Shown here: positions 1,581 to 22,822 of the stretch, in pieces
Layout of the letters: every line of letters starts with the position of its first letter
How positions within the stretch are numbered: the stretch's first letter is position 1
Source: Escherichia coli
Lineage (GTDB): Bacteria > Pseudomonadota > Gammaproteobacteria > Enterobacterales > Enterobacteriaceae
Assembly: GCF_016026235.1 (NCBI RefSeq)
Contig: NZ_CP065613.1
Length of the DNA: 64,000 nucleotides
Reading direction: 5' to 3' (one strand)
Position numbers and translations under genes: made by a program
Notes under the pieces: generated by a model
Seen by the model: only the letters and a program-made list of their open reading frames with translations
Databases searched by the model: none
Told to the model about the DNA's origin: nothing

Positions 1581-1599
1581 AGTAACTCCTTGTTATCTT

Positions 1600-3042: not shown

Positions 3043-3046
3043 ATTC

Positions 3047-3790
3047 TTATTCTCCCGCCCAGTGGCAGGCGTCGCGTAGCGGCGCAATAACCCGTGCCAG
3101 CCCGTCAATGTTAAAGGTCAGCTTTCCGGCGGCGTTGTCTGCGCCGGTATCCACCGTCAGCGTTTTTGCGCCGAACAGTTGCTTAATTTCATCAATCCCG
3201 GATAACCCCCTGCTGGACTCCAGCAGGGTGCCGTTCTCGCGCACAAACCAGTGGCTGCGCAGTGCCCGTGTGTCGGCATTCAGGGTGACGGCGATATCGT
3301 GGACATCCAGAGGGTGCATCAGCGCCACCTGCATCCGGGTAATATTGTCCACGCAACTGAACATCAGCACCGGGCGTGGCGGAACATGGCCGATAGCCGG
3401 GGTGGTTATCACCACCGTCGGGCGTTCCCCCGGCACCTGCGTCACCAGCAGCTCCGTGGTGTTGCCCTGGCGGCGTTTTTCCTGCTCTGTGGCGCGGGTC
3501 CAGGCTTCGCCCACAAAGCTGGCTTTGACCAGTGCGGCGTTGCCGAAGCCGGGCTGTTCCGGCGCAAGAATGCGGTCATAACAGTCAAGCCGCTCCAGCG
3601 CCGCAGACTCCCGCCGACAGGACTGCATGGCCTGTAACGTAGCTGTCGCATCCGGCGGGGTCGTGGTGGCGACGGCGACCGCCACACCGGCCATTGACGA
3701 TGTTTCTGCGGGCGCGGCACTGGCCGGTAAGCCCGCCATCAGGCCCGCGATAAACCATCCTGTCTGCCGGAAAACGCGCAACCTGCTCAT
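3047..3790 (-). CDS. T6SS-associated secreted protein (VasI/DUF2094-like), signal peptide
   Basis: 247 aa ORF with N-terminal signal-like segment ending in AAPA; sits between clpV and tssA as in other T6SS clusters. Confidence 0.45.
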   Translation of the reverse strand: MSRLRVFRQTGWFIAGLMAGLPASAAPAETSSMAGVAVAVATTTPPDATATLQAMQSCRRESAALERLDCYDRILAPEQPGFGNAALVKASFVGEAWTRATEQEKRRQGNTTELLVTQVPGERPTVVITTPAIGHVPPRPVLMFSCVDNITRMQVALMHPLDVHDIAVTLNADTRALRSHWFVRENGTLLESSRGLSGIDEIKQLFGAKTLTVDTGADNAAGKLTFNIDGLARVIAPLRDACHWAGE

Positions 3791-6519
3791 AAAACCATTT
3801 CATCCTCTGTGACGGACTCGTCGTCCTGAGCATCTTCCACGTCTGCCGTGAATGCACCGTCTGCCGCCGACAGGCGGATGCGGGCAATCGCCGTGTTAGC
3901 CGCCATTTTCTGCAACAGCAGCAGCGAGAGCGGCGGCAGCATGTCGCCGTCGATGACCGATTCGAGCATCCTCGCGCCGTTTTCCGCGCGGGTGACGCGG
4001 CTCATGATTTCGTCCGTCACTTCCGGCTCAATAACCACCTCCGCGCCAAAGCGGCTGCGCAGCACGTTATCCAGGCGGGCCAGTTTCCCGGCGATGATGG
4101 TGGCGAGCGTCTCTTTCGACAGCGGCAGGTAAGGCACCACCTCCATTCGCGCAAGCAGGGCAGGTTTAAAGAAGTCAGCCAGCACCGGATAGAGGGCTTC
4201 CTGCATGGTCTCCGGGTCATCCGCGTGTTCGACAATCATCTGGTAACCGAGGTTGGAGGTGAGGAAGAAGACGATATTCTTACAGTCAATCAGGCGGCCT
4301 TCGCCGTCTGCCATCTCGCCCTTGTCGAACGCCTGGTAGAACAGGTTGAGCACATCCGGGTGCGCTTTTTCCACTTCATCGAGCAGTACCACCGAGTAGG
4401 GTTTCTGGCGGATGGCTTCAGTCAGTACGCCGCCTTCGCCATAGCCGACATAGCCCGGAGGGGAGCCAATCAGCCGCGAGACGGTGTGCTTCTCCTGGAA
4501 CTCGGACATATTGATGGTGGTGAGGTACTGGCGACCGCCGTAGAGCAGCTCTGCCAGTTGCAGGACGGTTTCGGTTTTACCCACGCCGCTGGGGCCAGCC
4601 AGCAGGAACGCGCCGAGCGGGCGTCCCGGACGGCGCAGGTCGGCGCGTGCGGTCAGCAGGTGTTTATGCAGGCTGGCAATTGCCAGGTCCTGGCCTTTGA
4701 TGGTGTCACCAAGCCACTTCGGCAGGTCGGTGATGACCGACATTTCATTCTGCGACAGGCGGTTAAGCGGTACGCCGGTCCATTCGGCAATCACCGCCGC
4801 AATCTGTTTTTTATCGACGTGCGGGGAAACCAGCAACCGGTCGTTATGCAGGGCGTCCAGTTCGGCAGTGAGTTGTACTAGCTGCTGCACCGGGGAAACT
4901 GTTTCAGCGGTCTCTTCCGGCTGTGTACTGCCCGCATCATCAGCCGGTGCGGTACCGGTATTATCCTGTTCTGACTCTGGCGGCGTATCCACTACGGCAT
5001 CTGTGTCCTCTGTCACACCCAGCAATAGCTGGCGCAGCGCGATAATTTCCCGTACCAGCGTCTGCTGCTGGTGCCAGGCCGCTTCCAGTTCATCCAGCGC
5101 CGTCAGCGTTTCATCGTACTGCACCAGCACCTCAGTCATCCGTGAAGTGTCGGTACGCAGCCCGATGCGAAGCTCGCGCTCAAGCTGGCGAATTTCCGCC
5201 TCCTGCTGGTGGCTCAGGGTGGTCAGCGCCGAGATTTGCTTCGGTGGCGATGACAGGTTGATTGCCACACGTGCGCAGGCCGTATCCAGCACATCAATGG
5301 CTTTGTCTGGCAACTGACGCCCGGAGAGATAACGCTCACTTAATGTCGCAGCGGCCTGCAAGGCGTCATCATCAATCAGCACACCGTGAGACTGTTCATA
5401 GACCGAAGAGAGGCCGCGCAGAATAATGGTGGCTTCGGCAGCACTGGGTTCACTGACCTTCACCAACTGGAAGCGACGCGACAGGGCGGCGTCTTTCTCG
5501 AAGTATTTTTTGTACTCGCTCCAGGTGGTGGCGGCGATGGTTTTCAGCTCGCCACGCGCCAGTGCCGGTTTGAGCAGGTTGGAGATATCCAGCCCGCCCT
5601 GCTGGTTGCCCGCGCCAATCAGGGTATGCGCTTCGTCGATAAACAGAATGACCGGCACCGGAGAGGAAATGACCTCCGCCATCAGCCCCTTGAAACGTTT
5701 TTCAAACTCACCTTTCACCGATGCTCCGGCCTGCAATGCGCCCAGGTCAAGAGTCATGATATCGGTGTTTTTCAGCTTATCCGGCACCTGCCCTGCCACG
5801 ATGCGCAGCGCCAGCCCTTCAATCAGCGCGCTTTTGCCCACGCCGGCTTCGCCCACCACCACCGGATTGTTTTTACGGCGGCGGCAGAGAATGTCGATCA
5901 TCAGGTCGATTTCGTGGTCGCGGCACAGTACCGGGTCAAGTTTTCCGTTACGGGCGTCTGCGGTCATGTTTTTGGCGTAGCGGGCCAGCAGGGTGTCGCT
6001 GGTTTCCGTTGCGCGGGGCGTTTGCCCGCCAGCCAGATCCACGGATTCGGCGGATTCTTTTGTCCATGCGGCGAAATCCTGCTGTAACTGGTCGCGGTTT
6101 ATGGCCGTCAGCAGACGGGCAGCAGCGGGTGGAATATAGCGCAGCGGTGAATGCAACAGAGTAAGCAGCAGGACGCCGCTGCGCAGTTCGCTGTGCTGCA
6201 TCTGGGCCGAGGCCAGCAGCCATGACTCCTTGAGCCATTCGACCAGCATCGGGGAGAAGCTGGGATAGCCATCGGCGGAACGTCCGCCGGGATAACTCTC
6301 CACGGTCAGCGCCTGGCGTAAATCCTCCGCACTGATGCCTGTGCGTTCGGCAATCACCCTTACGTCGTTGCGCGGGATTGCCAGCATCTGTAACAGCACA
6401 TGGGCAACGGTGATCTCACTGGCCTGCTGGCTCATACACTCCGAGGCAGCCATTTCCAGCGCCTGTTTTGCAAAGGGGTTAAGCCGCTTTACCAGCGTGG
6501 CTAAATCAATCTGGATCAT
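3787..6519 (-). CDS. clpV: ClpV (TssH) AAA+ ATPase
   Basis: 910 aa; two AAA+ modules with Walker A GEAGVGKS and GPSGVGKT; Clp N-domain-like start. Confidence 0.9.
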   Translation of the reverse strand: MIQIDLATLVKRLNPFAKQALEMAASECMSQQASEITVAHVLLQMLAIPRNDVRVIAERTGISAEDLRQALTVESYPGGRSADGYPSFSPMLVEWLKESWLLASAQMQHSELRSGVLLLTLLHSPLRYIPPAAARLLTAINRDQLQQDFAAWTKESAESVDLAGGQTPRATETSDTLLARYAKNMTADARNGKLDPVLCRDHEIDLMIDILCRRRKNNPVVVGEAGVGKSALIEGLALRIVAGQVPDKLKNTDIMTLDLGALQAGASVKGEFEKRFKGLMAEVISSPVPVILFIDEAHTLIGAGNQQGGLDISNLLKPALARGELKTIAATTWSEYKKYFEKDAALSRRFQLVKVSEPSAAEATIILRGLSSVYEQSHGVLIDDDALQAAATLSERYLSGRQLPDKAIDVLDTACARVAINLSSPPKQISALTTLSHQQEAEIRQLERELRIGLRTDTSRMTEVLVQYDETLTALDELEAAWHQQQTLVREIIALRQLLLGVTEDTDAVVDTPPESEQDNTGTAPADDAGSTQPEETAETVSPVQQLVQLTAELDALHNDRLLVSPHVDKKQIAAVIAEWTGVPLNRLSQNEMSVITDLPKWLGDTIKGQDLAIASLHKHLLTARADLRRPGRPLGAFLLAGPSGVGKTETVLQLAELLYGGRQYLTTINMSEFQEKHTVSRLIGSPPGYVGYGEGGVLTEAIRQKPYSVVLLDEVEKAHPDVLNLFYQAFDKGEMADGEGRLIDCKNIVFFLTSNLGYQMIVEHADDPETMQEALYPVLADFFKPALLARMEVVPYLPLSKETLATIIAGKLARLDNVLRSRFGAEVVIEPEVTDEIMSRVTRAENGARMLESVIDGDMLPPLSLLLLQKMAANTAIARIRLSAADGAFTADVEDAQDDESVTEDEMVL

Positions 6520-6528
6520 AAGATGTCC

Positions 6529-7302
6529 TTATCGGAGTAATTTATTGAGCTGATGCAGAATATCCTGTGTCTGGCTGTCCAGACGCAGCAGATAAAACAG
6601 ATAAAATACGGCCAGCACAACAAGACCTCCGCACATTACATGCCTGATGGTCAGCCGCCGGATTAACTGATAACGCCCACCCTGTATGTTGTTCTTCTGG
6701 TGAAGCAGCGGAAATGGCGCATCGCCGCGCAGTTTGTGCAGGGCATGGTGCAGGCGCTGGTAGATCCGCTCAAATTCATCCTGTTGCTGAATGGCAACCT
6801 TGTAGCGCCCGCGAAAGCCGAGCGAAAAACAAAGGTATAAAAATTCCAGCAGATCCTGGTAACGTATCGGCTCCCGGATAAGGCGTTCGAGCAGGATAAA
6901 CACTTTCTCGCCGCCCCAGGCTTCGTTATGAAAATGAACCAGCAGCGACTGTTTGATCCATTCGTTTTTGTTGGACCAGCCGTTGCCCAGCGCCGCTTCG
7001 TCAATAAACGTGCAGAGAATGTAGCGGAACGAAACAATGACGCCCGGTTCGTATCCCTGTTCCTGGAGTAGTTGTTCTACGGCCTGGACATCGGTTACCA
7101 CCTGGGCAAACAGATGTTCTGGCATGGCCTGGCTGTTCATGGTGGACAGACGCATCACCATGCCGAGCAACGGCGTGGCGGCGTCAATCATTGGGTTCAG
7201 GCTGTTGCCGCGAAGGGCGAGACGGTACTGACGTCCTGATGTTCCGCTCTCCGGCTCCATGGGAAAAACCGACGGTTCACCCATATCGCTGATATCGCTC
7301 AT
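6529..7302 (-). CDS. tssL: TssL (DotU-like) T6SS membrane protein
   Basis: 257 aa with C-terminal TM helix (GGLVVLAVFYLFYLL); position between tssK and clpV. Confidence 0.7.
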   Translation of the reverse strand: MSDISDMGEPSVFPMEPESGTSGRQYRLALRGNSLNPMIDAATPLLGMVMRLSTMNSQAMPEHLFAQVVTDVQAVEQLLQEQGYEPGVIVSFRYILCTFIDEAALGNGWSNKNEWIKQSLLVHFHNEAWGGEKVFILLERLIREPIRYQDLLEFLYLCFSLGFRGRYKVAIQQQDEFERIYQRLHHALHKLRGDAPFPLLHQKNNIQGGRYQLIRRLTIRHVMCGGLVVLAVFYLFYLLRLDSQTQDILHQLNKLLR

Positions 7303-7306
7303 TCAC

Positions 7307-8653
7307 TTATCCCCTTATCGCCCAGAGCTGAAGGTTCAGATCGGGGAAGGTGCCGGAGATATGCAGCGCCAGCGCGCCCGCTTTTATCACGTCCTGCCAG
7401 GCTGGGGTGCCTTTTTCCAGTTCGAAGTAAACATAACCTTCATGCCAGGGCAACTGACGCGGCGCAGCGGTAAGCGTGTGCAGCGGAATACCCGGCACCT
7501 GCACGCTGACCACGCTGCGGATTTTGTCGGTAGCGGCCACTTTCGACTGCTGGATGAACTGGCGTTGTACCTGGTCGTAGGGCATCCTGGCGCGCACTGC
7601 CAGTACCAGCTTGCAGGACTGCAACAGTGTGGGATCGTTGATGGTGGCGATCCAGGTCCCCTCTGAAAAGAACAGCGGCAGATTCTGCGCACGCGGCACC
7701 AGTACGGTATTGAGCGCGCGCCGCAGTTCCGGGATCACGGTTCTGGTGAAGGTCGCGGTAAGATCCCTGTGATTATATGGCTCCACGGTGCAGGGCAGGC
7801 GATTACCTTCGGTAAAGGTCATCAGTTCTCCCAGCAGCCCCACCAGATTCCGGTAGAAGGCTTCCGGATGCAGCGTGTGCAGTTGGGAACGATGCGTGAA
7901 CTGCATTTGATGGCGGTTAAGCATCTGCAACATCATAAATTCGGCTACATCGGCGATCCCGCTCTGTTCAGGCGAACCAATGCGCCCGGCCAGGTCAGCG
8001 GCGCGGGTGGCAAGTAGTCCCTGCACCTCGCCGGAGAATGCCCCGAGCAACCCGCTGACACGGACGGCCTGAATGGTGGGAATAAAGGTGTTGTCCAGCA
8101 CCAGCGCGCCGGTGGCATTTTTATTGAGGATACGGCACAGGGGGAGAGTCACCATCGCGCTGAGATCATCTGCGCCGCTGACTATCCTGGGGATCAACTG
8201 TCCCAGACCGACTGGCTGTTCGTCGCCTTCGTCAGTGTGAAAATCACGGACGCGGGTATGGGTGAGGCGGTAACGCTCCGTACCCTGACCGGCGCTGTGC
8301 AACCCCTGGATTTCATTGATCACGTCGCTTATCACCGGCAGCGCCAGATAAATACTGTGGCTCTCTTTCGATGAAAGGGTTCCCGGCTGGAAAGGTTCCG
8401 GCAGCAGATCCTGGTCGGGAATACTGAATACGGTGCCGTCAGGCATGCAGCCCGCCGCACGGTCAATCATAATTTTGCCCTGAGCAAGCAGTTCGGTATT
8501 GATGGAGAGTTCCGTAAAGCCCCAGAAAAAATCACCCAGTGCATCCAGACGACGGGTCAGCAGGTACTCGCAGTGACGCTGCTGTTGCTGAAAATGCTGC
8601 GGCAGGGCAAACAGCCCTTCCTGCCAGATCACCTTGTTTTTCATTGTTGCCAT
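7307..8653 (-). CDS. tssK: TssK baseplate protein
   Basis: 448 aa; N-terminus MATMKNKVIWQEGLFALPQHFQQ typical of TssK; gene order. Confidence 0.8.
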   Translation of the reverse strand: MATMKNKVIWQEGLFALPQHFQQQQRHCEYLLTRRLDALGDFFWGFTELSINTELLAQGKIMIDRAAGCMPDGTVFSIPDQDLLPEPFQPGTLSSKESHSIYLALPVISDVINEIQGLHSAGQGTERYRLTHTRVRDFHTDEGDEQPVGLGQLIPRIVSGADDLSAMVTLPLCRILNKNATGALVLDNTFIPTIQAVRVSGLLGAFSGEVQGLLATRAADLAGRIGSPEQSGIADVAEFMMLQMLNRHQMQFTHRSQLHTLHPEAFYRNLVGLLGELMTFTEGNRLPCTVEPYNHRDLTATFTRTVIPELRRALNTVLVPRAQNLPLFFSEGTWIATINDPTLLQSCKLVLAVRARMPYDQVQRQFIQQSKVAATDKIRSVVSVQVPGIPLHTLTAAPRQLPWHEGYVYFELEKGTPAWQDVIKAGALALHISGTFPDLNLQLWAIRG

Positions 8654-8655
8654 CG

Positions 8656-9180
8656 TCAGTTTTCCTCTTTTTTCATCTCAATCGCACTGGCGCGGATGTG
8701 CACCAGCAGGCGATAGTGGTGGCCGATACTTTCTACCGGCTCAATTTGTTTCCATTCTGTGGCCTGGTCGTCTGAAAAATAGGCAATGACACCGATATAA
8801 CTGGTTTTCTCATCCAGCTTGATCGGCGGCCGTGTTTTTACGGTGTCCGGCAACAGGTTGAAGTCCTGATGATCGATATAGTTTTTCCCCAGCACGTCGG
8901 GCAGCGCGGTGGTGGCAACCTGGTCGTAGTCGGCGGCCTGGAATTTGGAGTCGTCGCTCAGGTAAACCAGTTGGACATCCACCGGCGCAGCTTCGCCGTC
9001 CGCCGTCAGGTTGCTGTCCGGCTCGGTCAGCAGCGTGACGGTTAGCTCGGTTGACTGATCCATCAGCTTTCCGACCTGAATATCCGGATTGCGGATCACC
9101 TGGCTGATTTTTTTCGCTGTTTCACAGCCAGTTAATACGACGCTCATCAGAACGCAGGCCAGAAACGCTTTGCCGTTCAT
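8656..9180 (-). CDS. tssJ: TssJ outer-membrane lipoprotein
   Basis: 174 aa, lipobox LTGC after signal peptide; upstream of tssK. Confidence 0.7.
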   Translation of the reverse strand: MNGKAFLACVLMSVVLTGCETAKKISQVIRNPDIQVGKLMDQSTELTVTLLTEPDSNLTADGEAAPVDVQLVYLSDDSKFQAADYDQVATTALPDVLGKNYIDHQDFNLLPDTVKTRPPIKLDEKTSYIGVIAYFSDDQATEWKQIEPVESIGHHYRLLVHIRASAIEMKKEEN

Positions 9181-10469
9181 GCTTCCGGCTCCCGCTGTTT
9201 TTCTCGCAGCACCCGGTCATAGACCTGGGCATAAACTTCATTGAACAGCATTTCAAATCCTTGCTGTCGGCTGGAGGCCAGCTCATCGTAATAGTTGCTG
9301 TACATCTGCCATGCCCAGGCGTCGTCCATTTTCTGGCGCAGTTCATGGCTGCGGCGGTATTGCGCAAAGCGGCGCATCAGGTTGCCCGGCGAGAAGGCCT
9401 CCAGCATGACACGCAACGCTTCCACAATCGCCGCCCGGTTAGCCTCTTCATGATGCCGGATGTTGCGCAGGCTTTCGCCGATGGCCGCGGGTGCTGCGAG
9501 ATGTACCGGACTTTTACCCTCAGCGAACATGACGTTCAGCGCAGTGGCGTAGTCCATATCAAGGCGAAGCGGGTTGTCTTCCAGTGGACGCAGGTGTTTA
9601 TCCGACAGGCTGTTCTGTTGTTGTTGCAGGCTCAGCAATCCCTTAATGGCAGCCTGCAACGCCCGTCCGGCCTCTTCGAGAAACTCATCCGCATCCTGAG
9701 AATCGTGCAGCGTCAGCGGGCACTCCATACCGCGCAGCAGCGGGGTCACGGCCAGGTGGTACTGCGCCATGGCAGAAAATTCATCGTCGTCCTCATAACG
9801 GGCATTGCCGGGCGGCAGATCCATAAACGGCGTATTGATCCCGTTTGCACCTGTCAGTTCGGAGGCGGGGGCGACGGGCCGGGAAACGCGTGGTGCGATC
9901 GGATCATCTGCCACCATCAGGCTTTCCGTCTGGAGTGCCTGGAGCGGATCGCTGGAAAAACCGTGCGCCACCGTGGGGGCAAGCTGATGCTGGAACGGCA
10001 TTCCCGGATAGGACGGTTGTCCCTCGGTGGTCAGCAGGGTGTCCGCCAGACTGTCGCGGTTCATCACAATCGTTTCCGGGGTTGCCATCCGCTCGTCGTA
10101 GGTGACAGCCGCGCCGTCATGCAGAAACGCTTTCAACGCCAGTGCACCGAGCTGGATCTCATCCCCTTGGCGCAGGCGGATGAGCGCATCGGAAGAAACC
10201 GGGGCCAGATTAATCATCAGTCCCGGCGTCAGGCACCGCAGGCAATAGGCTCCGTCGTGCCGGATAACGGTACAGGCACGCGCAGCAATGCTTCCCGCCC
10301 GATCCTGTACCTGCCAGTGACATTCCGGCGTATGACCAATATCACCGCCGTTTTCGCTGAACAGGCATTTTGCGGCGCGTCCGCTTTCCAGTTCGTTGCC
10401 ATTCATCACCTGTAAAGTCAGTGAGGCCTGGCGGGATTGCTGTTTTTCCTCAGCCATAAGTGGTTCCAT
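9177..10469 (-). CDS. tagH: FHA-domain protein TagH (Fha)
   Basis: Track ORF 9177..10619; start trimmed to ATG 10469 just after tssG stop. FHA-like N-terminal region (TLQVMNGNELESGRAAKCLFSENGGDIGHTPECHWQV). Confidence 0.65.
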   Translation of the reverse strand: MEPLMAEEKQQSRQASLTLQVMNGNELESGRAAKCLFSENGGDIGHTPECHWQVQDRAGSIAARACTVIRHDGAYCLRCLTPGLMINLAPVSSDALIRLRQGDEIQLGALALKAFLHDGAAVTYDERMATPETIVMNRDSLADTLLTTEGQPSYPGMPFQHQLAPTVAHGFSSDPLQALQTESLMVADDPIAPRVSRPVAPASELTGANGINTPFMDLPPGNARYEDDDEFSAMAQYHLAVTPLLRGMECPLTLHDSQDADEFLEEAGRALQAAIKGLLSLQQQQNSLSDKHLRPLEDNPLRLDMDYATALNVMFAEGKSPVHLAAPAAIGESLRNIRHHEEANRAAIVEALRVMLEAFSPGNLMRRFAQYRRSHELRQKMDDAWAWQMYSNYYDELASSRQQGFEMLFNEVYAQVYDRVLREKQREPEA

Positions 10470-10473
10470 AGAA

Positions 10474-11523
10474 TTATTCCCTGATTCGGATGGTGATGGC
10501 GGGCGGTACTTTCGGCTGACCAATAAAGCTGGTTCTACCGAGGCGGGAGCTGGCCGGATCGCCAAGGCGCATCCCTTTAGCCTGCTGTGGTGCCAGGCAC
10601 AGCCGTAAATCCCAAGCAAACTGGTCGCGCAGAATAAAGGAAAGGAACATGGTCAGAGGCAGGTGATTTTCGCCATCGGGTAAAAATGAGAGATAACGCT
10701 CCCGCGACAGGTTGCCAATCTGCAACAGAAATTTTCCGCTGCGATCCGGCACCCGTGCGCCGAGGGTAAAATTAACGCCAAGTATGGAGCGTCCCGGAAT
10801 ATGTCCAGCCGTTTTTCCTTTCGGATTACGTACACCAAGCCGGTTCTGGTGTGCCGGATCAATGGCGACTTTACGCAGTTGCCAGCGTTCAATGGTGACA
10901 TCCGGCAAATCAAAACAGTGCGACACCAGATTACAGATAACCTCCGGCGCGCGGCCTGGTGTTGCCAGAATTCCGGCGTAAGCCAGCATTTTGCTGTGGT
11001 TAATGGCAAGCCTGTCGCGCACGCTCTGATTACCCAGCCCGACCAGCGCGTACATGCGCTGTGAAAAGGTGTCAGTGCCGCCATTACGAAAGCAGATGTA
11101 GTAGCGGTATTTGCGCCAGGCATGATAGGCAAACTGTGTCCAGCGGTGGCTGAACAGATCGAGAAATTCTTTAAGGCCGTCTTCGTTCTGTGCGGACTCC
11201 TGCGCCATCTGATCCAGATAATAGCCCGGTAGCGGCGACTGGCTGCCGGAAAAACCAAGGAACCGGGTTTGCAGTACATACTGTCCGTTCTGGCTACGGG
11301 AAAGCGCACTCAGGTCCGTACCCGGAAAACCGATACTGGCGTCAGAGCTGAAACGCACGATCTCCCGGGCAGGCTCGGTACGCAGGGAAATATCCTGGCC
11401 CGGAGCGCCATACCGACGGTACAGCGCCTCCATCAGCACATAGAAATTGCAGTTGCGCACATCCGCCGATAACGGCGGTTTTACCGCTATATAAGGGCGT
11501 GCTGACCCATTTTCTCCTGCCAT
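10474..11523 (-). CDS. tssG: TssG baseplate protein
   Basis: 349 aa; follows tssF in conserved tssE-tssF-tssG order. Confidence 0.7.
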   Translation of the reverse strand: MAGENGSARPYIAVKPPLSADVRNCNFYVLMEALYRRYGAPGQDISLRTEPAREIVRFSSDASIGFPGTDLSALSRSQNGQYVLQTRFLGFSGSQSPLPGYYLDQMAQESAQNEDGLKEFLDLFSHRWTQFAYHAWRKYRYYICFRNGGTDTFSQRMYALVGLGNQSVRDRLAINHSKMLAYAGILATPGRAPEVICNLVSHCFDLPDVTIERWQLRKVAIDPAHQNRLGVRNPKGKTAGHIPGRSILGVNFTLGARVPDRSGKFLLQIGNLSRERYLSFLPDGENHLPLTMFLSFILRDQFAWDLRLCLAPQQAKGMRLGDPASSRLGRTSFIGQPKVPPAITIRIRE

Positions 11524-13347
11524 TCCCAGGCCTCCTGACTTTCCGTGTTGATAATTTTCAGACAGTGGTACGAATTGATGCTGGCGTAGAGAGCAAAAAA
11601 GTGCGAGAGCACTGTACCAAGAAGATAAATTTCACCTTCGCAGATAAATGGATCGGGACGTATCCACAGCGTGGTCGCCAGCCCGCGAACCGGCACGCCT
11701 TTAAACAACCTGTCAACAGGTTTGGTTTCGAGTTTTTCTATGGCATCCAGTTTCTGGCGCGACAGTCTGGCCCGCTGCGGATGGTGAGCGCCTGGCAGGT
11801 CGAAGGTCCGCAGGATCTGGATCAGTGTCTCCCTGTCCAGCAGGGAGAGGTAGTTCAGGTTCATCGCGGAAATCAGCGACCAGTGCATGTCAGCCGTCCG
11901 TGACTGGCCAGAGCGGCTGCGTTGGGCGTGTGACATTATGAAATGAGGCCACCGCCGGGTTTTTGTTGACGGCCACGCAGATATCGCCGATATGCAGCCG
12001 AGCAGGGATCATACGGTTGGTACAGATTAATGACGTGGTGATCACATCATCATTAAACCGTGAGCTGTCCGGAATGCTGCCGTCCGCATGGACAAAGGCG
12101 ATACTATGTTCAAGCCCGCGGTGAAACAGGGATGTTTTAGTCCGGTGATGCCAGTAGACGACTTCCCGCTGGCGGCTGTACTCCATCTGGTGCTGGAAAC
12201 TTTCAAATTCGGGCCAGACACGCGCCTGGCTGCCAGGGTTGGATTCAGTACCTGAAACTTTGACTTTGCTGGTGACTGTGCTTATCTGAAAAATGTCATA
12301 AGCGTCGGGATGCCGGTGGCTGGCGCGCAGCGGGTATTCCGCTATCCGTCCATCAGGCCTGACGGGTTCCGCATAATGCGTAAACAGGTTAATGGCTGGC
12401 GTACAGTGCAGACGCAGTGAGTCCTGGCGTAGCTTGATGTCGGCAGGTAACGGGCGGTTAAAGTGCAGGCGCAGCGTAAACGCGCTGACCGAGAAATCGT
12501 CCGGTAGTGGCGCAACATCGCGCAGATGGAAAAAAAAGAAGGCTTCGGGATAGCAGAAATACTCCTGGAGTACCCGATAGCCGCTGTGGACATTTTTCGG
12601 CCACGGTAGCAGGGCGTCCTGGTTTTCAAATCCGGCGGCCTCCAGCCACAGATCCGGCAGCGGCAGGCGGTACTCTCCGGCAATCAGTTCCGCATCCATC
12701 AGGCATTCGCAAAACCACAGATAAAGCTGGTGTCGGGTATAATCGTCTTCATTACCCAGCCAGAACGTTATTTTGTTCAGGTCAAGCATGGCGGGGGAGA
12801 CATTGTTATCTGCGGTAAAACTGATATCTATGATGCCTTCTTTCAGGCTGCTGGCGTTGCGGGTGTCGAGAATGCGCAGTGGTTGCAGCCAGATATCGCG
12901 CGCCAGCGTGAAATGACAGGCTACGGAAGAAACGATTTTATCATGATTGTCAGACAGCACCTTCTGAGCAGCCAGGGCGGACTTTTCTGAGCGGCTTCTG
13001 ATCAGTTCATTACGGCAGACTTGAACAGGGACTTTTAACTGATCGGTTTTGGGTTCATAGGCAATAACCGTCATGGCCGGAACTGGGCGTAAATAGTTTG
13101 CCCACAGCATACGGATTAGCCCATGGGTGAATTCGGGGAATTCGTCCTCAAGTTTCTGACGCAGGCTACCGGACATAAAGGCAAAGGCTTCCATCAGGCG
13201 CTCCACGTCCGGATCACCCTCTTTCTCGGCCAGAAAGTGGGCCAGATGTGGTTTTTCCTGCGCCAGCAGTTTGCCAAGCTGGCGAAGATAATCCAGCTCT
13301 TCGCGGTAGTAACGTTCTTCAAAAGCCACAGAGATCACTCCACACAA
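11487..13347 (-). CDS. tssF: TssF baseplate protein, apparently frameshifted (two overlapping ORFs 11890..13347 and 11487..11936)
   Basis: The 485 aa and 149 aa ORFs together give about 620 aa, the normal TssF size; the C-terminal piece carries the conserved TssF C-terminus (NLNYLSLLDRETL...). Frames differ by one nucleotide within 11890-11950. Confidence 0.6.
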
Positions 13348-13760
13348 TAGCGTTGATGATTGTCCAGCAAAATGTCAAATTCAAACACTCCCCAGGTTTC
13401 GCTGACATCGACCGTAGCCACAATATGAAAACGTAGTTCCACAGGGGCGTATTCATCCGGTGCCGCAGCCGTAACAACAACATCGGTAATACGAGGTTCG
13501 TAATGTAAAATGCACTGGCTAATGGACTTACGGATTTCTCGTCTGAAATCGCTGGAGGCCAGCGATTCATCATTTAAATCAGTAATCCCCAGCTCTGGTG
13601 AGCCATAACAACTGCCGGAGCGGGTATTCAGGACCTGTTGCAGGTTACGTCTGATGGAACGTATCAGTGCTTCTTTTGGATTCTGGTATGAAGGCGGGTT
13701 GGCCGCCTCACGGATACGTTCAAAAAGACTGCTGGTTGGCCCTGAATCCCGTCTTTGCAT
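13335..13760 (-). CDS. tssE: TssE (gp25-like) baseplate protein
   Basis: 141 aa; gp25/lysozyme-like family size and position after tssC. Confidence 0.75.
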   Translation of the reverse strand: MQRRDSGPTSSLFERIREAANPPSYQNPKEALIRSIRRNLQQVLNTRSGSCYGSPELGITDLNDESLASSDFRREIRKSISQCILHYEPRITDVVVTAAAPDEYAPVELRFHIVATVDVSETWGVFEFDILLDNHQRYCVE

Positions 13761-13764
13761 CTGA

Positions 13765-15249
13765 TTATTCCTTATCCAGTCGTCCGACCAGACTCAGGTC
13801 GAAACTGGCACCCATGTATTTAAAATGCGGTCTGACAGAAATCGCGACCTGGTACCAGCCTGGCTCACCATCCACATCAAGTACCTCGATCTTCGCCTGA
13901 CGTAATGGCCGGTGGCTGCGGACTTCGGCAGGCGGATTCTCCTGGTCGGCCACATACTGGCGAATCCAGGTGTTCAGCTCGCGCTCCAGGTCACTGCGTT
14001 CTTTCCATGAGCCAAGCTGTTCGCGCTGAATTACCTTGATGTAATGCGCTAACCTACTGATAACAAATAAGTATGGCAGCTGGGTGCCGAGTTTATAGTT
14101 GGTCTCCGCAGCCTTGCCTTCGGGGGTTTTGGGGAATGTTTTGGGTTTCTGCACCGAGTTGGCCGAGAAAAAGCACGCATTATCAGACCCTTTACGCATG
14201 GTCAGTGTGATAAAGCCTTCTTCCGCCAGCTCATACTCTCTCCGGTCAGTGATCAACACTTCAGTCGGAATTTTTGCCTGCATTTGCCCCATGGATTCAT
14301 ACAGATGCACCGGGAGGTCTTTGACTGCGCCGCCGCTGGAAGGGCCAATGATATTGGGACACCAGCGATATTTAGCAAAACTTTCAGCCAGGTTCGCAGC
14401 TAGTAAAAACGAGGTGTTCCCCCACAAATAAGACTCGTGACTCTGGCTGACGTCTTCATGGTAACGGAAGGTCCTGGCTGGGTTCTCATCCGGCGAGTAA
14501 GGGTGACGCAGCAGGAACCGGGGGGCGGTCAGCCCCAGGTAGCGTGAATCTTCTGATTCACGCAAGGCACGCCAGCGGGAATAGGCCGGGCCTTCAAAGA
14601 TGGCTCCTGGTTCTTTAATCCCCGGTAACTCTGTCCATGAGTCCAGACCGAAAAATTCGGATGATACTGATGAGAGGAACGGGCTGTGCGCCATCGCACT
14701 GACCTGGCTGATATATTTCAGCAACTTCATATCCGGCGTGGTGTTCTTAAAGGCAAAGTTGCCGATTACCGCCGCCACTGGCTCACCGCCAAATTGTCCG
14801 TAACCGCTTGAATATACATGTTTGTAATATGCAGACTGCGTGATTTCAGGTGCAAATTCGAAATCATCCAGCAGTTCTTCCTGAGTGACATTCAGGAAAT
14901 GGACCTTGATGTTTTCCCGTGTATCCGCGCGTTCAACCAGCAGCTTCAGCGAGCGCAGCAGGGATTCCAGTTCCTGAAACTCCGGGGCGTGAATAATGGC
15001 ATCCATCTGCCTGCTGGTTCGGGCATCAATATCAGCAATCATGGCGTCAACGGCCAGGATATTGATAGGTTCAGCGCTACTGTCACCCTGTAACATGGCG
15101 GCAATAAAGGCGCTCACGCCCTGGCGGGTGATATCGTAGCTTTCTGATTTAGGCTGGACGCGTGTTTGCGCCATGATTTCATCAAGCAGAGATGGGGGCG
15201 CGGCGGTTTGCGACGCGCTGACGGGAGCAATATCTTCCTTTACTGACAT
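13765..15249 (-). CDS. tssC: TssC (VipB) sheath large subunit
   Basis: 494 aa, highly conserved sheath protein sequence. Confidence 0.9.
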   Translation of the reverse strand: MSVKEDIAPVSASQTAAPPSLLDEIMAQTRVQPKSESYDITRQGVSAFIAAMLQGDSSAEPINILAVDAMIADIDARTSRQMDAIIHAPEFQELESLLRSLKLLVERADTRENIKVHFLNVTQEELLDDFEFAPEITQSAYYKHVYSSGYGQFGGEPVAAVIGNFAFKNTTPDMKLLKYISQVSAMAHSPFLSSVSSEFFGLDSWTELPGIKEPGAIFEGPAYSRWRALRESEDSRYLGLTAPRFLLRHPYSPDENPARTFRYHEDVSQSHESYLWGNTSFLLAANLAESFAKYRWCPNIIGPSSGGAVKDLPVHLYESMGQMQAKIPTEVLITDRREYELAEEGFITLTMRKGSDNACFFSANSVQKPKTFPKTPEGKAAETNYKLGTQLPYLFVISRLAHYIKVIQREQLGSWKERSDLERELNTWIRQYVADQENPPAEVRSHRPLRQAKIEVLDVDGEPGWYQVAISVRPHFKYMGASFDLSLVGRLDKE

Positions 15250-15271
15250 ACTGAAAATCCTTCTGTGAAAA

Positions 15272-15775
15272 TTATTTCTGAACGGCGATACCCAGTTCTT
15301 GGATCAGCTGCTCGCGGCTGTCTTCGTTTTCCAGTAGCGCCTGAAGTTGTGCGCGGAAGGCCGGAATATTGCCTAGTGGAGACTTAAGTGCGACCAGAGC
15401 TTCACGCAATTCGAGAAGACGTTTTATTTCTGGTACCTGGCTGGCAATATGGTCCGGAGAAAGGTCATCCATAGATTTGACTTTCAGGTTGACGTACATT
15501 TGCTCATTGGGAGCGTCACTGAGTTCAGCCGGAACAACAAACTCCCGTTCAATGTCAGCTTCTGAAATGACTGCGTTGAGGTTATAGCGGTTGATAGCAA
15601 TGGCAGTTCGCTCGTCCAACGGCGTGTTATCTGGTTTCCCTTTCAGATTGCCGGTGATCAATAAATTCAGCGGCAATTCGATATCAGCAGCCACCCCATC
15701 AACTTTTGGTGTATACCGAACGCTGATTCTTTCTTTCGGCGCGACACTGCCGCCATTGTTGTTCATTTTGCTCAT
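15272..15775 (-). CDS. tssB: TssB (VipA) sheath small subunit
   Basis: 167 aa; conserved TssB sequence, immediately upstream of tssC. Confidence 0.85.
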   Translation of the reverse strand: MSKMNNNGGSVAPKERISVRYTPKVDGVAADIELPLNLLITGNLKGKPDNTPLDERTAIAINRYNLNAVISEADIEREFVVPAELSDAPNEQMYVNLKVKSMDDLSPDHIASQVPEIKRLLELREALVALKSPLGNIPAFRAQLQALLENEDSREQLIQELGIAVQK

Positions 15776-16476
15776 AAAAATGTTCCCGTTCAGGCCATGA
15801 GCACAGCATTTTCGTACTGCATAAAAATACCGAAGATACCGTTTCAGTGGCAGTTAGATAATGTAACCTTCCTTCTGTTGTGATCAGTATTCTACTCATG
15901 AAATAAAATATTAAAAGAACTATTTATATTTTAGAAAGAGATGTATTCTTCCTTGCTAATATATTATAGTGAAATAAATTTTGGTATTTATAGACTTGGT
16001 GAATATGATTTTACGGTCAATAAAATACCATAATATATTGATTTATATGCATTTATTAAATTGATTAATAAGTTTTATGTATGGTTTTATCAATTAATTA
16101 ATTGCTAGCAATACATCATAAGGAATTCCTTTAAGGAATGTCTTAATTGCGTGCTGGAACGATGGCGGAGTAAGTGTCGTAATAATTTGTTTTTGACGCG
16201 GCTGTGGATTTTTATGGGGGGGAGATACGTTATGGATAATTGTGCTGTTGAAGTTGATATATTTTTAGCTTATGTGACCGTGTTCTGAAATTGACTAAAA
16301 ATATATTTAAACACCATAAAAGAGTTTTTCAGTAGGTGCTAATTACGTGTGCCTGTAACTCGAATAAAGAAAAGGGTGTGGTTCCTGATGTGAGCCGCAT
16401 CACACTCTAACCCGTCGGGGATTAACGACGGGTTGTTCGTAAAACAGCAGTTGATAATTTCACAAGGAGTTCATAA
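15776..16476. promoter_or_regulatory. AT-rich divergent intergenic region between tssB and hcp (candidate promoters / nucleoid-protein silencing region)
   Basis: About 700 bp, extremely AT-rich with phased A/T tracts, no ORF of 60 aa or more; flanked by divergent tssB operon and hcp. Confidence 0.4.
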
Positions 16477-16995
16477 ATGCCAACCCCATGTTACATTTCA
16501 ATTACAGGTCAGACCCAGGGGAACATCACTGCCGGTGCTTTCACCGCAGATTCTGTCGGCAATATCTACGTGCAGGGACACGAAGATGAAATGCTGGTGC
16601 AGGAGTTTCTGCATAACGTTACTGTTCCAACCGATCCACAGTCTGGTCAACCTTCCGGGCAGCGCGCGCACAAACCGTTCATTTTCACCGTGGCGCTGAA
16701 CAAAGCCGTTCCGCTGCTGTACAACGCGCTGGCCTCCGGTGAAATGCTGCCGAAAGTGGAGCTGCACTGGTGGCGTACTTCAGTTGAAGGCAAGCAGGAG
16801 CACTACTTCACCACACGTCTTACTGACGCGACGATTGTGGACATGAACCTGCACATGCCGCACTGCCAGGACCCTGCACAGCGTGAGTTTACGCAATTGC
16901 TCGCAGTATCACTGGCATACCGTAAGGTTGAGTGGGAGCACATCAAATCCGGTACTTCTGGTGCCGATGACTGGCGTGCACCGCTGGAAGCATAA
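16477..16995 (+). CDS. hcp: Hcp (TssD) T6SS tube protein
   Basis: 172 aa; MPTPCYISITGQTQGNITAGAFTADSVGNIYVQGHEDEMLVQEF typical Hcp. Confidence 0.9.
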   Translation: MPTPCYISITGQTQGNITAGAFTADSVGNIYVQGHEDEMLVQEFLHNVTVPTDPQSGQPSGQRAHKPFIFTVALNKAVPLLYNALASGEMLPKVELHWWRTSVEGKQEHYFTTRLTDATIVDMNLHMPHCQDPAQREFTQLLAVSLAYRKVEWEHIKSGTSGADDWRAPLEA

Positions 16996-17003
16996 ATCTG
17001 AGT

Positions 17004-17041
17004 CAACAACATCCTGCCTTCGTGCAGGATGTTGTTTTTGT
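17004..17041 (+). terminator. Rho-independent terminator after hcp
   Basis: Inverted repeat CAACAACATCCTGC / GCAGGATGTTGTT followed by TTTTTG, 9 nt after hcp stop. Confidence 0.6.
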
Positions 17042-17215
17042 ACGTGTAAAAAATGAGTGTCAGTAAGGAGTTACGCTTTCATGAGGGAGATGGCGGATGC
17101 CGGAAACCCGGGCGGTAGCGTACCTGAAAATGTAAAGATGAGTGTAACGCTGCACTGGCACCCTTTGCTGCATGGTGAGAATCATTTGGTCCGTGAATAA
17201 ATCAGGGAGGTCATT

Positions 17216-19615
17216 ATGTCCTTAAAAGGTCTGCGCTTTACGCTGGAGGCTGACGGCCAGGAGCCGGACACCTTTGCAGTGGTGAATTTCAGGTTAATCC
17301 AGAACCAGTCTTATCCGTTTGTGATGAGTGTGGATGTTGCCAGCGACTCTTTTATGCAGACGGCGGAGATGCTGCTGGAGAAGAAGGCGACGCTGACCAT
17401 CTGGCAGGGCGTCATCCCGCTGCGTTATGTTACCGGCGTGGTGGCGGGCTTTGGCATGCAGGAGAACAATGGCTGGCAGATGCGTTACCACCTGCGTATT
17501 GAGCCGCCGTTATGGCGGTGCGGGCTGCGGCAGAATTTCCGTATCTTCCAGCAGCAGGATATCCGGACGATATCGGCCACGTTACTGAACGAGAACGGCG
17601 TCACGGAGTGGACGCCGCTGTTTTATGAGGACCATCCGGCGCGGGAGTTCTGTGTGCAGTACGGGGAGTCGGACCTGGCGTTTCTGTCCCGGCTGTGGGC
17701 GGAGGAGGGAATTTTCTTCTTTGAGCGGTTTGCGGCGGACAGTCCGGAGCAGAAGCTGACGCTGTGCGACGATGTGGCGGGGCTGTCACAGGCGGGAGAG
17801 CTTCCGTTTAACCCGGACACATCGGCAGGAGCGGAGACAGAGTGTGTCAGTATGTTCCGTTATGAGGCGTATGTCCGCCCGTCGTCGGTGCAGAGCCAGG
17901 ATTACACGTTTAAGGTGCCGGACTGGCCGGGGATGTATGAGCAGCAGGGTGAGAACCTGAACGGACAGCTGGCGCAGTACGAGATATTTGATTATCCGGG
18001 AAGGTTCAAGGATGAGCAGCACGGCAAGGATTTCACGCTGTACCAGATGGAGAGCCTGCGCAGTGATGCGGAAAAGGCCACAGGGCAGAGTAATTCGCCG
18101 AGGCTGTGGCCGGGAACGCGGTTTACGCTGACGGGGCATCCGCAGAAGATGCTGAACCGTGAATGGCAGGTGGTACAGAGCATTCTGTCAGGAAACCAGC
18201 CGCAGGCGCTGCACGGCAGCCAGGGAAAGGGAACCACACTGGGAAATCAGTTAGAGGTGATACCGGCGGACCGGACGTGGCGTCCACGGCTGCAAAGCAA
18301 ACCGAAGGTGGACGGGCCACAGAGCGCCATTGTCACCGGGCCTGCGGGAGAGGAAATCTTCTGCGATGAACATGGCCGGGTACGGGTGAAGTTCCACTGG
18401 GACCGTTATCACGGGATGACGGAGGCGAGTTCATGCTGGGTGCGGGTATCGCAGGCGTGGGCGGGGCCGGGGTTTGGTAACCTGGCGATACCGCGGGTGG
18501 GCCAGGAGGTGATTGTTGATTTTCTGAACGGAGACCCGGACCAGCCGCTGGTCATGGGCCGGACGCACCATGAGGACAACCGTTCGCCGGGCGACCTGCC
18601 GGGAACGAAGACGCAGATGACCATCCGGTCGAAGACCTATAAAGGAAGCGGATTTAACGAACTGCGCTTCGAGGACGCCACCAGTAATGAGCAGGTGTAT
18701 ATCCATGCGCAGAAGAACATGGATACGGAGGTGCTCAACGACCGGACAACGGATGTGAAACATGACCATACGGAAACCATCGGTAACGACCAGAAGATAA
18801 CGGTGGTGAAGGGTCAGACGGTTCAGGTCGGTACAAAAAAAGAGGGGGGCCACGACCAGAGTATCACGGTGGCGAACGACCGGCGTATCACGGTACGTAA
18901 TGACCAGACTCTGAAGGTGACGAATGACCGGACGGTGAGCGTGAGTCACGATGACGGTCTGTACGTCAGAAACGACCGTAAAGTGACGGTGGAAGGGAAG
19001 CAGGAGCATAAGACGACGGGGAACCATATCAGTCTGGTGGAGGGGAAACACAGCCTGGTGGTGAAGGGGGACCTGGCGGAGAAGGTGAGTGGCGCGCTGG
19101 GGATAAAAGTGGACGGGGATATCGTGCTGGAGAGCAGCAGCCGGATAAGCCTGAAGGTGGGTGGCTCGTTTATCGTCATTCAGCCGGGCGGAGTGGATAT
19201 TGCCGGGCCGAAGATAAACCTGAACGGTGGGGGCAGTGCGGGGACACCGGTGGGGACGATGCAGCCGGCGGTGCTGGAGGCTCCGGAGGATGAGAGCAGT
19301 GATGATGGCAGTGATGACTCCGGAGAGGATAGTGGCAATCCCGCAGGGAGTGACGGAGGAGGTGATGGCGGTGACGATGAAGATGATCCTGAAAAATATA
19401 CCCTCCAGTTCCATTTTACGGACGATGACGGGATACCGTATTCAGAGACGCAGTATATTGCCTTTTTTGAGGATGGCACACAGACGCGTGGTGAAACAGA
19501 CAGAGAGGGATATACAGAAATATTTTATACAGATACAGCACAGGAAATTAAAGTCCAATTGTTATTTTCGGATGCTTTTTATATTGAGCCGGAGGGGCAT
19601 TATGGCAGGGAATAA
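17216..19615 (+). CDS. vgrG: VgrG (TssI) spike protein with acidic C-terminal extension
   Basis: 799 aa; gp27/gp5-like body, repeated RNDxT/V-type beta-helix motifs, C-terminal acidic linker (DDGSDDSGED...GGDDEDD) plus about 70 aa tail. Confidence 0.9.
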   Translation: MSLKGLRFTLEADGQEPDTFAVVNFRLIQNQSYPFVMSVDVASDSFMQTAEMLLEKKATLTIWQGVIPLRYVTGVVAGFGMQENNGWQMRYHLRIEPPLWRCGLRQNFRIFQQQDIRTISATLLNENGVTEWTPLFYEDHPAREFCVQYGESDLAFLSRLWAEEGIFFFERFAADSPEQKLTLCDDVAGLSQAGELPFNPDTSAGAETECVSMFRYEAYVRPSSVQSQDYTFKVPDWPGMYEQQGENLNGQLAQYEIFDYPGRFKDEQHGKDFTLYQMESLRSDAEKATGQSNSPRLWPGTRFTLTGHPQKMLNREWQVVQSILSGNQPQALHGSQGKGTTLGNQLEVIPADRTWRPRLQSKPKVDGPQSAIVTGPAGEEIFCDEHGRVRVKFHWDRYHGMTEASSCWVRVSQAWAGPGFGNLAIPRVGQEVIVDFLNGDPDQPLVMGRTHHEDNRSPGDLPGTKTQMTIRSKTYKGSGFNELRFEDATSNEQVYIHAQKNMDTEVLNDRTTDVKHDHTETIGNDQKITVVKGQTVQVGTKKEGGHDQSITVANDRRITVRNDQTLKVTNDRTVSVSHDDGLYVRNDRKVTVEGKQEHKTTGNHISLVEGKHSLVVKGDLAEKVSGALGIKVDGDIVLESSSRISLKVGGSFIVIQPGGVDIAGPKINLNGGGSAGTPVGTMQPAVLEAPEDESSDDGSDDSGEDSGNPAGSDGGGDGGDDEDDPEKYTLQFHFTDDDGIPYSETQYIAFFEDGTQTRGETDREGYTEIFYTDTAQEIKVQLLFSDAFYIEPEGHYGRE

Positions 19616-20405
19616 TAATACTAGTGGGACTTCACAACCCGAGTCGCAAGTATGTGTAGTACCGCAAAAAATTACAAATAAATTTAAAATAATGATGAGT
19701 AAGGCTTGTAAAGCACAGAAAATGGTTTTATTGAAAAGAGCAGATGATATTATGTCATGGGAGGGGGAACAACAACGAGATTTTATTAAAGTTTTTGGCC
19801 TTAAAGGCGAGGACATTATAAAAATCAGAAAGGTTGGGGAAGATACTGGGAAACGAATGCAAGCGAGACTATTCATAATGGATGGCATCAGACGAATAAT
19901 GACGATTGCAAATGGTTTGACGATCGAAAGCTATAAAGATTATACGAACTGCAATGAATTTGCTGCTTTTATTAGTCCACATCTTGATCCTCCTTACATT
20001 GTAAATATCGGAGCGCATTTTGAATACAGACATGGTATAAAACAGTCGGTTACAGGTAGAGACTCTCATGTAAGTACACTTTGCCATGAAATGTCCCATA
20101 TATTTTGGTATTGGGGTGACAATCAAAAAGGTGGTATGTGGACTCAGGATTATACGGGTATTAATAAGTTCGCAACAAGTAATAAGGATGAAGTTAGCTA
20201 TGAGAAACATGTTTCAGTGGCTAATGATCTGGTTACATTGCGTAAAGATCAGTTATTTGAGAATGCATATAATGTTGAAAGATATTTTTATATAAAATTA
20301 AATGATGAAGATATTGAAGCTCAAGATGAGAATATGTTAGCAAAAAAAGTAGAGGATAAAATAAAAGAGATAGAAAAATGTTTTGATGAGTTGATGGGGA
20401 AATAA
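19602..20405 (+). CDS. Putative VgrG-associated effector, zincin-like metallopeptidase candidate (HExxH)
   Basis: ATG at 19602 overlaps vgrG stop by 14 nt (track ORF 19227..20405 begins inside vgrG). AT-rich; motif STLCHEMSHIFWYWGD...WTQDYTG (HExxH plus a downstream Asp). Confidence 0.45.
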   Translation: MAGNNNTSGTSQPESQVCVVPQKITNKFKIMMSKACKAQKMVLLKRADDIMSWEGEQQRDFIKVFGLKGEDIIKIRKVGEDTGKRMQARLFIMDGIRRIMTIANGLTIESYKDYTNCNEFAAFISPHLDPPYIVNIGAHFEYRHGIKQSVTGRDSHVSTLCHEMSHIFWYWGDNQKGGMWTQDYTGINKFATSNKDEVSYEKHVSVANDLVTLRKDQLFENAYNVERYFYIKLNDEDIEAQDENMLAKKVEDKIKEIEKCFDELMGK

Positions 20406-20468
20406 GATGAAGAGGTTGGCTTTCTATAATCTAAATTATGTTGTACTGATGGTTTTTTTCTTTGTTTT

Positions 20469-21155
20469 TTGCCATTATCTATTGCAATTGCAATAGATAA
20501 TGAGAATCTTTTTGTAAAAAAATACAGATTCGGTTTTGAACGAAGAAGTGACAATGGGAAACCAATTATTTATCTTAGCCATAATTTAGCGCCAGAGGAA
20601 AATATAAGTAATGAATTAACAAATGATGTTGTTGTTAAATTGGTGGTTAAGCCACATGCTGAAAATATTTTAGCTACTATAACTTTTTATAACAGTAGTA
20701 CTAAATCGTATTTTCTCCCCAGAATATATTATCCAAAGAACTTCCAAAAAGGAAATGGAGATGTATTTGATGCTTTGTGTGATGACGAATTCTTGATTAC
20801 ATCAGGAAATATTAGCTTAGACTATCTAGGAGGCTTTTGTCCCTTTGAGCTTGATTTGAATTTGAGCCGATGGGTGGAAATTACGGCAGGTAAAAAAATA
20901 TCTTTTGATGTAAAATTGAATGATATGCATTCATTTCTCCCCAGTTTAAATAATTATCATATAAAAACATTAAACTACAAACTTGTTAGGAGAAAATGGT
21001 TTGTATTAAAATCAATTAATGAAACATTCCTCTCTATTTTGATGAAAAGATACTCATGTAATGAATATGATTTTAGAGCTATATCATTTAGTGGAGAGGG
21101 ATGTGATAATTATGAATTTGATAAAAATACGTTTTTTTTGTTAATCAAATATTAG
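20469..21155 (+). CDS. Hypothetical protein, immunity candidate for the upstream effector
   Basis: AT-rich 228 aa ORF directly downstream; begins with TTG in the track; a 29-codon ATG-initiated hydrophobic peptide (20407..20496) lies in another frame just upstream across a T-run. Confidence 0.3.
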   Translation: MPLSIAIAIDNENLFVKKYRFGFERRSDNGKPIIYLSHNLAPEENISNELTNDVVVKLVVKPHAENILATITFYNSSTKSYFLPRIYYPKNFQKGNGDVFDALCDDEFLITSGNISLDYLGGFCPFELDLNLSRWVEITAGKKISFDVKLNDMHSFLPSLNNYHIKTLNYKLVRRKWFVLKSINETFLSILMKRYSCNEYDFRAISFSGEGCDNYEFDKNTFFLLIKY

Positions 21156-21394
21156 ATAAAGATGATGAGCAACATTCTGTTCATATTAGGTCTAATGAAT
21201 TTTCCATCAATATCGATGGAAGCTTGGTAAAGCAACCTTATTGATTAAAATGTATCGCAGGTTTTATTTTCTGTAATGCTGGTGCATGTGCGTAAATATT
21301 TCTTAAGAGCCGGAAACACCTCTTCCGCCTTTATCGACGATAAACCTACCGCCAGAACCGGTGATGCCATTGACTGCGGTGGCGTGGTTAAAGG

Positions 21395-21732: not shown

Positions 21733-21738
21733 GGGAGA

Positions 21739-22509: not shown

Positions 22510-22822
22510 TATTGTGGTGATGTACGGGGAGATTTATCTGTTTAAAAGTCCGTAGCTGTTAATATCAAGAGATAATCGTGAAATAAACGGAAAATCAAGC
22601 TCGACATGTAATGGTAGTATCCATCATGTTGCATTTGTGTTCGATCGTAATGTCAGTTCACTTGGCTGCAATATATTTTGCGTAATATCATCAATGCTCT
22701 GTCGATATTCCAATGTGTGACAATCGAAAGATATGCATTTTATTTGCTTCTTTGTCAAAACTTTATTGTCGTAGAAACAATACCCATCAATTAAAATCTC
22801 TCAAAGTAAAAGAACCAGCAAC

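Follow-up and report, generated by a model that had tools for sequence, protein, structure and literature searches.

A single inserted base divides tssF in a subtype-i1 T6SS cluster of an Escherichia coli lineage

In a 64-kb stretch of Escherichia coli DNA (referred to as the window), the T6SS gene tssF, which encodes an essential subunit of the baseplate, is divided by one inserted base into two parts that lie in different reading frames, and this insertion is a genuine mutation inherited in one clonal lineage. We consider it very likely that it represents a recent, vertically inherited, lineage-specific +1 insertion by which tssF became a pseudogene and the i1 T6SS was most likely disabled.

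The T6SS cluster and the break in tssF

The interrupted gene belongs to a T6SS cluster that begins at the left edge of the window and comprises genes on both strands. The cluster and the two neighbors of tssF are as follows.

1..25982, both strands: aspV-linked subtype-i1 T6SS cluster
Minus-strand genes of the cluster: tssM-tssA-vasI-tssH-tssL-tssK-tssJ-tagH-tssG-tssF (interrupted)-tssE-tssC-tssB
Plus-strand genes of the cluster: hcp-vgrG-M35 peptidase gene-hypothetical gene-vgrG remnant-DUF4123 gene-two DUF3304 genes-Tle1-like phospholipase gene
10474..11523, minus strand: tssG, intact, 349 aa, with a 37-nt overlap with the 3′ end of tssF
13335..13760, minus strand: tssE, intact, 141 aa, immediately upstream of tssF

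The cluster corresponds to Ec042-0210-0226 and is of subtype i1, within the E. coli "T6SS-2" phylogenetic cluster, an assignment based on gene content (TagH, VasI, VasL) and on Leimbach et al. 2017 (PMC5422975) and not on a tree. A tblastn comparison with all 20 annotated proteins of strain ECNB21-M121 showed that the cluster genes in the window besides tssF have their full length and are uninterrupted, with tssM present only in part; it is cut by the left edge of the window, and its first 506 codons are open. To judge the integrity of tssM, contigs were reached by an exact look-up with the TssA protein of the window. Contig GCA_001907385.1, which carries the insertion and matches the window at 100% identity over 13 kb, contains a complete tssM gene (1155 aa); after tssM come a VasL-domain gene, another hcp gene, yafT, and dnaQ/rnhA. 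The TssM protein of strain FDAARGOS_943, used as an exact probe, was unique to that strain. With tssM judged on the identical contig, tssF is the only gene among tssA-M, hcp, and vgrG whose interruption keeps the locus from being a complete subtype-i1 T6SS, and the view of the preliminary description that the gene set is otherwise complete can be maintained. The tssG gene has a strong Shine-Dalgarno (SD) sequence of its own (−10.3 kcal/mol).

Three observations concern the plus-strand part of the cluster. An orphan remnant of a VgrG C terminus at 21388-21678 shares 57% identity with residues 630-731 of the main VgrG. Both this remnant and a pair of DUF3304 genes, arranged in tandem with an overlap (22823-23904), precede the Tle1-like phospholipase gene (23889-25982). 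Nowhere in the cluster is divergence greater than in the effector region, which shows 87-92% identity to ECNB21-M121.

Within tssF, the following features were distinguished.

11890..13347, minus strand: N-terminal open reading frame (ORF) as obtained mechanically, 485 aa, TTG start
11487..11936, minus strand: C-terminal ORF as obtained mechanically, 149 aa, ATG start
11892..11892, minus strand: inserted base, read as A on the plus strand and T on the coding strand; in the 1842-nt tssF it follows nucleotide 1437
11890..11892, minus strand: premature TGA, made directly by the insertion, ending the N-terminal fragment after Gly479
11890..13329, minus strand: N-terminal fragment of tssF, GTG start at 13329, 479 codons and stop
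11487..11888, minus strand: C-terminal fragment of tssF in the +1 frame, native Met481 to Ile613 and stop, 133 aa

The two mechanical ORFs overlap by 47 bp (11890-11936) in frames that are one nucleotide apart, as the preliminary description had reported, and they are clearly consecutive halves of one family model when compared with the Pfam profile of TssF, PF05947 (608 positions, gathering cut-off 25 bits). The N-terminal fragment matched profile positions 7-475 (E 4.8e-91, 306.6 bits) and the C-terminal fragment positions 476-607 (E 6.7e-26, 91.4 bits). The lengths of 485 and 149 aa given before are correct for the mechanical ORFs, but the part that is TssF sequence amounts to 479 and 133 aa. 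Relatives are annotated with a start that corresponds to the GTG at 13329 of the window, and the resulting N-terminal fragment of 479 aa was 99.8% identical to residues 1-479 of intact TssF in the tblastn comparison. The first 16 codons of the 149-aa ORF (11936-11889) are the 3′ end of the N-terminal fragment read out of frame. The locus keeps the place of tssF between tssE and tssG in a T6SS cluster; what it encodes is not the single polypeptide of about 570-620 aa with all three domains that characterizes the family, but two pieces of 479 and 133 aa.

The alignment to TssF homologs that had been proposed for locating the indel led to a single base at window position 11892. Global alignment to FDAARGOS_943, to E. 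coli 042, and to intact tssF placed one extra T, which changes the coding strand from ...ACG GAC GGC GAC ATG CAC... to ...ACG GAC GGC TGA C ATG CAC... The inserted T is flanked by C and G, so that no homopolymer is involved and its position is unambiguous. It is the sole frame-changing difference between the tssF of the window and intact tssF; a 2001-nt query around tssF corresponded to 2000 nt in every close relative, and FDAARGOS_943 showed one other difference from the window in 2 kb. Intact TssF is encoded by E. coli 042 (EC042_RS01195, WP_000863395.1, within Ec042-0210-0226) and by ECNB21-M121 (WP_047624552.1). Their tssF genes are 99.2-99.9% identical to that of the window at the nucleotide level, show the same tssE-tssF-tssG synteny, and lie at the same place in the chromosome, with aspV/yafT on one side and yafV/Flag-2 on the other, whereas in the window the 613-aa protein is broken into pieces of 479 and 133 aa by the T inserted behind nucleotide 1437.

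Consequences for TssF

Intact TssF could be aligned over its full length with TssF of the EAEC Sci-1 system (PDB 6GIY, 6GJ1, 6N38; E 6e-69). Sci-1 TssF belongs to a different T6SS subtype, is a distant homolog by sequence, and is one polypeptide, but it shares with intact TssF the three-domain organization and the conserved PTxPxYPxT...HW motif, which spans the break point. Domain boundaries were taken from this solved homolog and from Park et al. 2018 (PMC6300606), who assigned residues 90-457 to a central beta-barrel domain and residues 460-587 to a C-terminal domain. In the alignment, Gly479 corresponds to Sci-1 Asp458, Asp480 to Arg459, and Met481 to Phe460. The break falls between the central and the C-terminal domain, in a linker of two residues (Sci-1 D458/R459), and Asp480 is the only residue lost. 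The N-terminal fragment spans the N-terminal helix and the central beta-barrel domain; Met481-Ile613 (window 11888..11490 without the stop) form the whole C-terminal domain.

In the solved TssKFGE baseplate wedge of EAEC, two TssF subunits and one TssG contribute their C-terminal domains to a triangular core, and these domains also make the contacts between wedges (PMC6300606). The extra T places a TGA immediately after Gly479, at which TssF would be released without its whole C-terminal domain. As the 479-aa product lacks the core-forming domain, assembly of the TssEFGK baseplate should fail, and with it sheath polymerization and export of Hcp and VgrG; this system should then be unable to deliver the linked M35-peptidase and Tle1-like cargo. 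With translation ending about 370 nt before tssG, polarity may in addition lower the expression of tssG to tssM, despite the strong SD sequence of tssG. From the sequence, the T6SS is most likely non-functional owing to the split in tssF. In the related system of S. sonnei, a ΔtssF strain serves as the mutant without T6SS activity (Leung et al. 2024, PMC10924462). The earlier claim that the split decides whether the cargo can be delivered was overstated, because a second T6SS elsewhere in the genome would lie beyond the view of the 64-kb window.

A different outcome would be expected if ribosomes that terminate at the new stop reinitiated at Met481. TssF(1-479) and TssF(481-613) could then assemble non-covalently with TssG, and the T6SS would be at least partly active. 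Such a two-piece TssF has room because the cut falls exactly in the domain linker, removing only Asp480, and because the native ATG of Met481 (11888-11886) begins 1 nt past the new stop (TGAcATG), an arrangement that makes separate translation of the C-terminal domain by termination-reinitiation mechanistically possible. The SD-like pairing calculated for Met481 (−5.7 kcal/mol) is within the range of the real starts of the cluster (−2.3 to −11.8 kcal/mol), the median of all ATGs on the strand being −2.4 kcal/mol, and the integrity of all other cluster genes also counts in favor of this reading. These points have to be weighed against the highly interdigitated structure of the TssF2-TssG trimer described by Park et al. 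2018 (PMC6300606) and against a further non-synonymous change, Pro280Ser, that has accumulated on the frameshift allele. Moreover, the homolog and genome comparisons presented below revealed no conserved natural two-gene TssF, the short C-domain representatives being singletons beside broken genes or contig fragments, and close relatives have inactivated the same cluster by other lesions, so that the system looks dispensable in the lineage. On balance we regard a working two-piece TssF as unlikely, and loss of function by the insertion is retained as the preferred reading.

Programmed recoding, by +1 frameshifting at GGC UGA C or by transcriptional slippage, could restore some full-length TssF. 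The UGA-C context at the break resembles the shift site of prfB. If the Gly tRNA slipped from GGC to GCU, however, the middle position would be mispaired. As read from the sequence, the SD-like element near the break does not have the spacing of prfB. The combination of a shift-prone codon, an SD-like stimulator ~3 nt upstream, and conservation that defines a prfB-type +1 frameshift was not found at the site. The interval in which a change of frame could give full-length TssF, reaching from the opening of the downstream frame to the new stop, is 119 nt long, and the longest homopolymer within it is A5 (window 11964), in place of the long A or T run before the stop, open in both frames, that is expected for transcriptional slippage. 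The insertion site is also absent from 547 of 547 relatives, so there is no conserved recoding signal. A precedent for the rescue of a T6SS gene from a frameshift does exist: tssM1 of C. rodentium (Gueguen et al. 2014, PMC4256274), like tssF here, is a T6SS core gene with a premature stop and a C-terminal domain in another frame. This gene has, however, an A11 slippery run just before the stop, and the long-run type of slippage was named here after tssM of C. rodentium and Y. pseudotuberculosis. Lacking both a slippery run and conservation, slippage and programmed frameshifting were rejected as explanations; a contribution of recoding to TssF synthesis is very improbable.

Distribution of the insertion and of other lesions in the cluster

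A 61-mer across the insertion was searched in the complete RefSeq E. coli genomes, 547 of which carry the locus. There was no perfect match in any of these 547 genomes, all of which showed a one-base gap. The exact 479-aa truncated protein was nevertheless present on 23 contigs; its database entry STL99794.1 belongs to a contig of 4.56 Mb, and Logan assemblies, which are built from raw reads, contain the protein too. At least eight assemblies or SRA runs, independent of one another and stemming from different projects and technologies, have the same inserted T. It was verified at the DNA level in GCA_002467115.1, GCA_902503985.1, GCA_001907385.1, GCA_018228945.1, and GCA_031665325.1 and in the Logan assemblies of SRR13627086 (same contig in 7 samples) and SRR3578993. 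An exact look-up of the mechanical 149-aa ORF gave no match, because gene callers start the C-terminal fragment at Met481; the resulting 133-aa ORF has been called in public assemblies.

The insertion is found on at least two haplotypes, one with Ser280, as in the window, and one with Pro280. In GCA_902503985.1, which shows 2 SNPs relative to the window over 15.9 kb, it occurs together with the ancestral Pro280, and GCA_018228945.1 combines it with a 9-nt indel in tssM. The latter is part of an in-frame length polymorphism of tssM (1155 versus 1158 aa) among near-identical strains, carriers of the frameshift included, which was observed beyond the left edge of the window (L019-L024, ~11523-14999). 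In the frameshift-bearing strains no secondary decay was seen in other T6SS genes, and the divergence (2 SNPs in 15.9 kb) is too low for this to carry weight.

A sequencing or assembly error in the source of the window, with an intact tssF in reality, had been left as an alternative by the preliminary description. Frameshifts of this type do occur at the locus, since several homopolymer deletions were present in the public assemblies L012, L014, and L015. An identical insertion outside any homopolymer, shared by at least eight independent assemblies including those from Logan and found on two haplotypes, identifies the extra T as a genuine mutation, and an error is extremely unlikely. As a separate observation, a T8 run on the coding strand (window 12530-12537, tssF nucleotide ~793) is shortened in L012, L014, and L015. 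These sequences also have several other single-base deletions, and the deletions are probably long-read assembly errors rather than biology, which calls for caution when tssF pseudogenes are counted from assemblies.

The least probable explanation, with a likelihood close to nil, is that tssF naturally consists of two genes in this clade. Only the split itself speaks for it, and it was ruled out by the search with the 61-mer, in which 0 of 547 complete genomes had the insertion, by the single 613-aa TssF of annotated relatives, and by a search for homologs of the C-terminal fragment. For the latter, 1.84 billion representatives were searched, and the best 150 of 831 homologs were inspected along with context look-ups. 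The majority of these 150 were about 570-620 aa long. The short C-domain representatives examined were each present on one or two contigs, beside a broken or remnant tssF, or were contig fragments; examples are a pair of 467 and 147 aa in a vgrG-tssF-tssG remnant next to an integrase and a pair of 368 and 129 aa with a gap. A conserved natural two-gene TssF was not found among the best 150 of the 831 C-domain representatives and their contexts.

Different lesions of the same cluster were present in close relatives. Strain FDAARGOS_943 (L007, 16017-19636) is ~99.9% identical across the cluster and has an intact tssF, with an IS21 element inside tssC and IS600 and IS1 in the effector region. GCA_002461615.1 (L023, 6523-9256) has an identical TssA, an intact tssF, and a tssH gene that is frameshifted by a +1 T at nucleotide 1023. 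Independent lesions of tssF itself, in other E. coli, were a nonsense mutation in codon 471 (SRR36619591, L013), a nonsense mutation in codon 474 (GCA_965264685.1, L016), and an additional C at nucleotide 1339 (SRR31464324, L011), the last in a sequence in which tagH is split as well. A hotspot for tssF lesions at codons 448-479 was considered and rejected, because the lesions had been found via the same 133-aa downstream ORF. That the cluster has been hit repeatedly and independently in near-identical strains is consistent with T6SS activity being under relaxed or negative selection.

The remainder of the window was compared with FDAARGOS_943 as well. An IS4-family element is present in two copies (28004-29300 and 57092-58385) that are ~99.8% identical to ISEc60 of FDAARGOS_943; its transposase ORF (28025..29266) matches NF033591 with E 1e-107, and an 11-bp overlap of the flanks at the copies may reflect duplication of the target site. 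A small gene for an "integrating conjugative element protein" is interrupted by the first copy, and the second is located inside the lysine-N-methylase gene of the Flag-2 cluster. In FDAARGOS_943 the ISEc60 copies are at other sites (flgH and a glycosyltransferase gene), and its IS5 is absent from the window. Because the insertion sites differ between FDAARGOS_943 and the window, ISEc60 has been recently active in the lineage. The Flag-2 lateral-flagella cluster (38788-64000) is located ~13 kb from the T6SS cluster and includes flhA, flhB, fliR/Q/P, fliM/N, a sigma-54 activator gene, fliE-J, a glycosyltransferase gene, flgN/M/A, and flgB-G. Between the two clusters are yafV, ivy, fadE, lpcA, yafJ, dpaA, dinJ-yafQ, yafL, and rayT, as derived from collinearity with FDAARGOS_943.

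Implications for annotation, TssF, and the lineage

The tssF gene of this lineage should be annotated as a genuine frameshifted pseudogene and should not be "corrected" as if it were an error. For the strains of the lineage, the presence of the full set of genes is no ground for scoring them as T6SS proficient.

The clean split at a domain boundary provides a ready-made natural construct with which the function of the TssF C-terminal domain in trans can be tested. If a two-piece TssF were indeed formed and, together with TssG, kept the T6SS active, it would be a natural demonstration that the C-terminal core domain works in trans, and it would parallel TssG, a TssF-like protein without the central domain.

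No description of this tssF allele or of its lineage was found in the literature searched. As an event, the insertion is an ordinary one, a new allele of the already familiar loss of a bacterial weapon. In S. sonnei, T6SS genes carry frameshift and IS lesions and Hcp is not secreted; the lesions listed in the accessible part of that report are in tssM, tssA2, tssH, tssK, and tssC, not in tssF (PMC10924462). In experimental evolution of EAEC, T6SS genes were lost readily and fast (bioRxiv 10.1101/2025.02.08.637259), and many subtype-i1 T6SS/1 clusters of bovine E. coli are variable or degraded and probably non-functional (PMC5422975). In all of these, as here, core T6SS genes were affected by frameshifting indels with premature stops and by IS insertions. 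The tssF, tssC::IS21, and tssH alleles indicate that the same cluster has been hit repeatedly in close strains, which fits the picture now emerging from S. sonnei and from the evolution experiments with EAEC.
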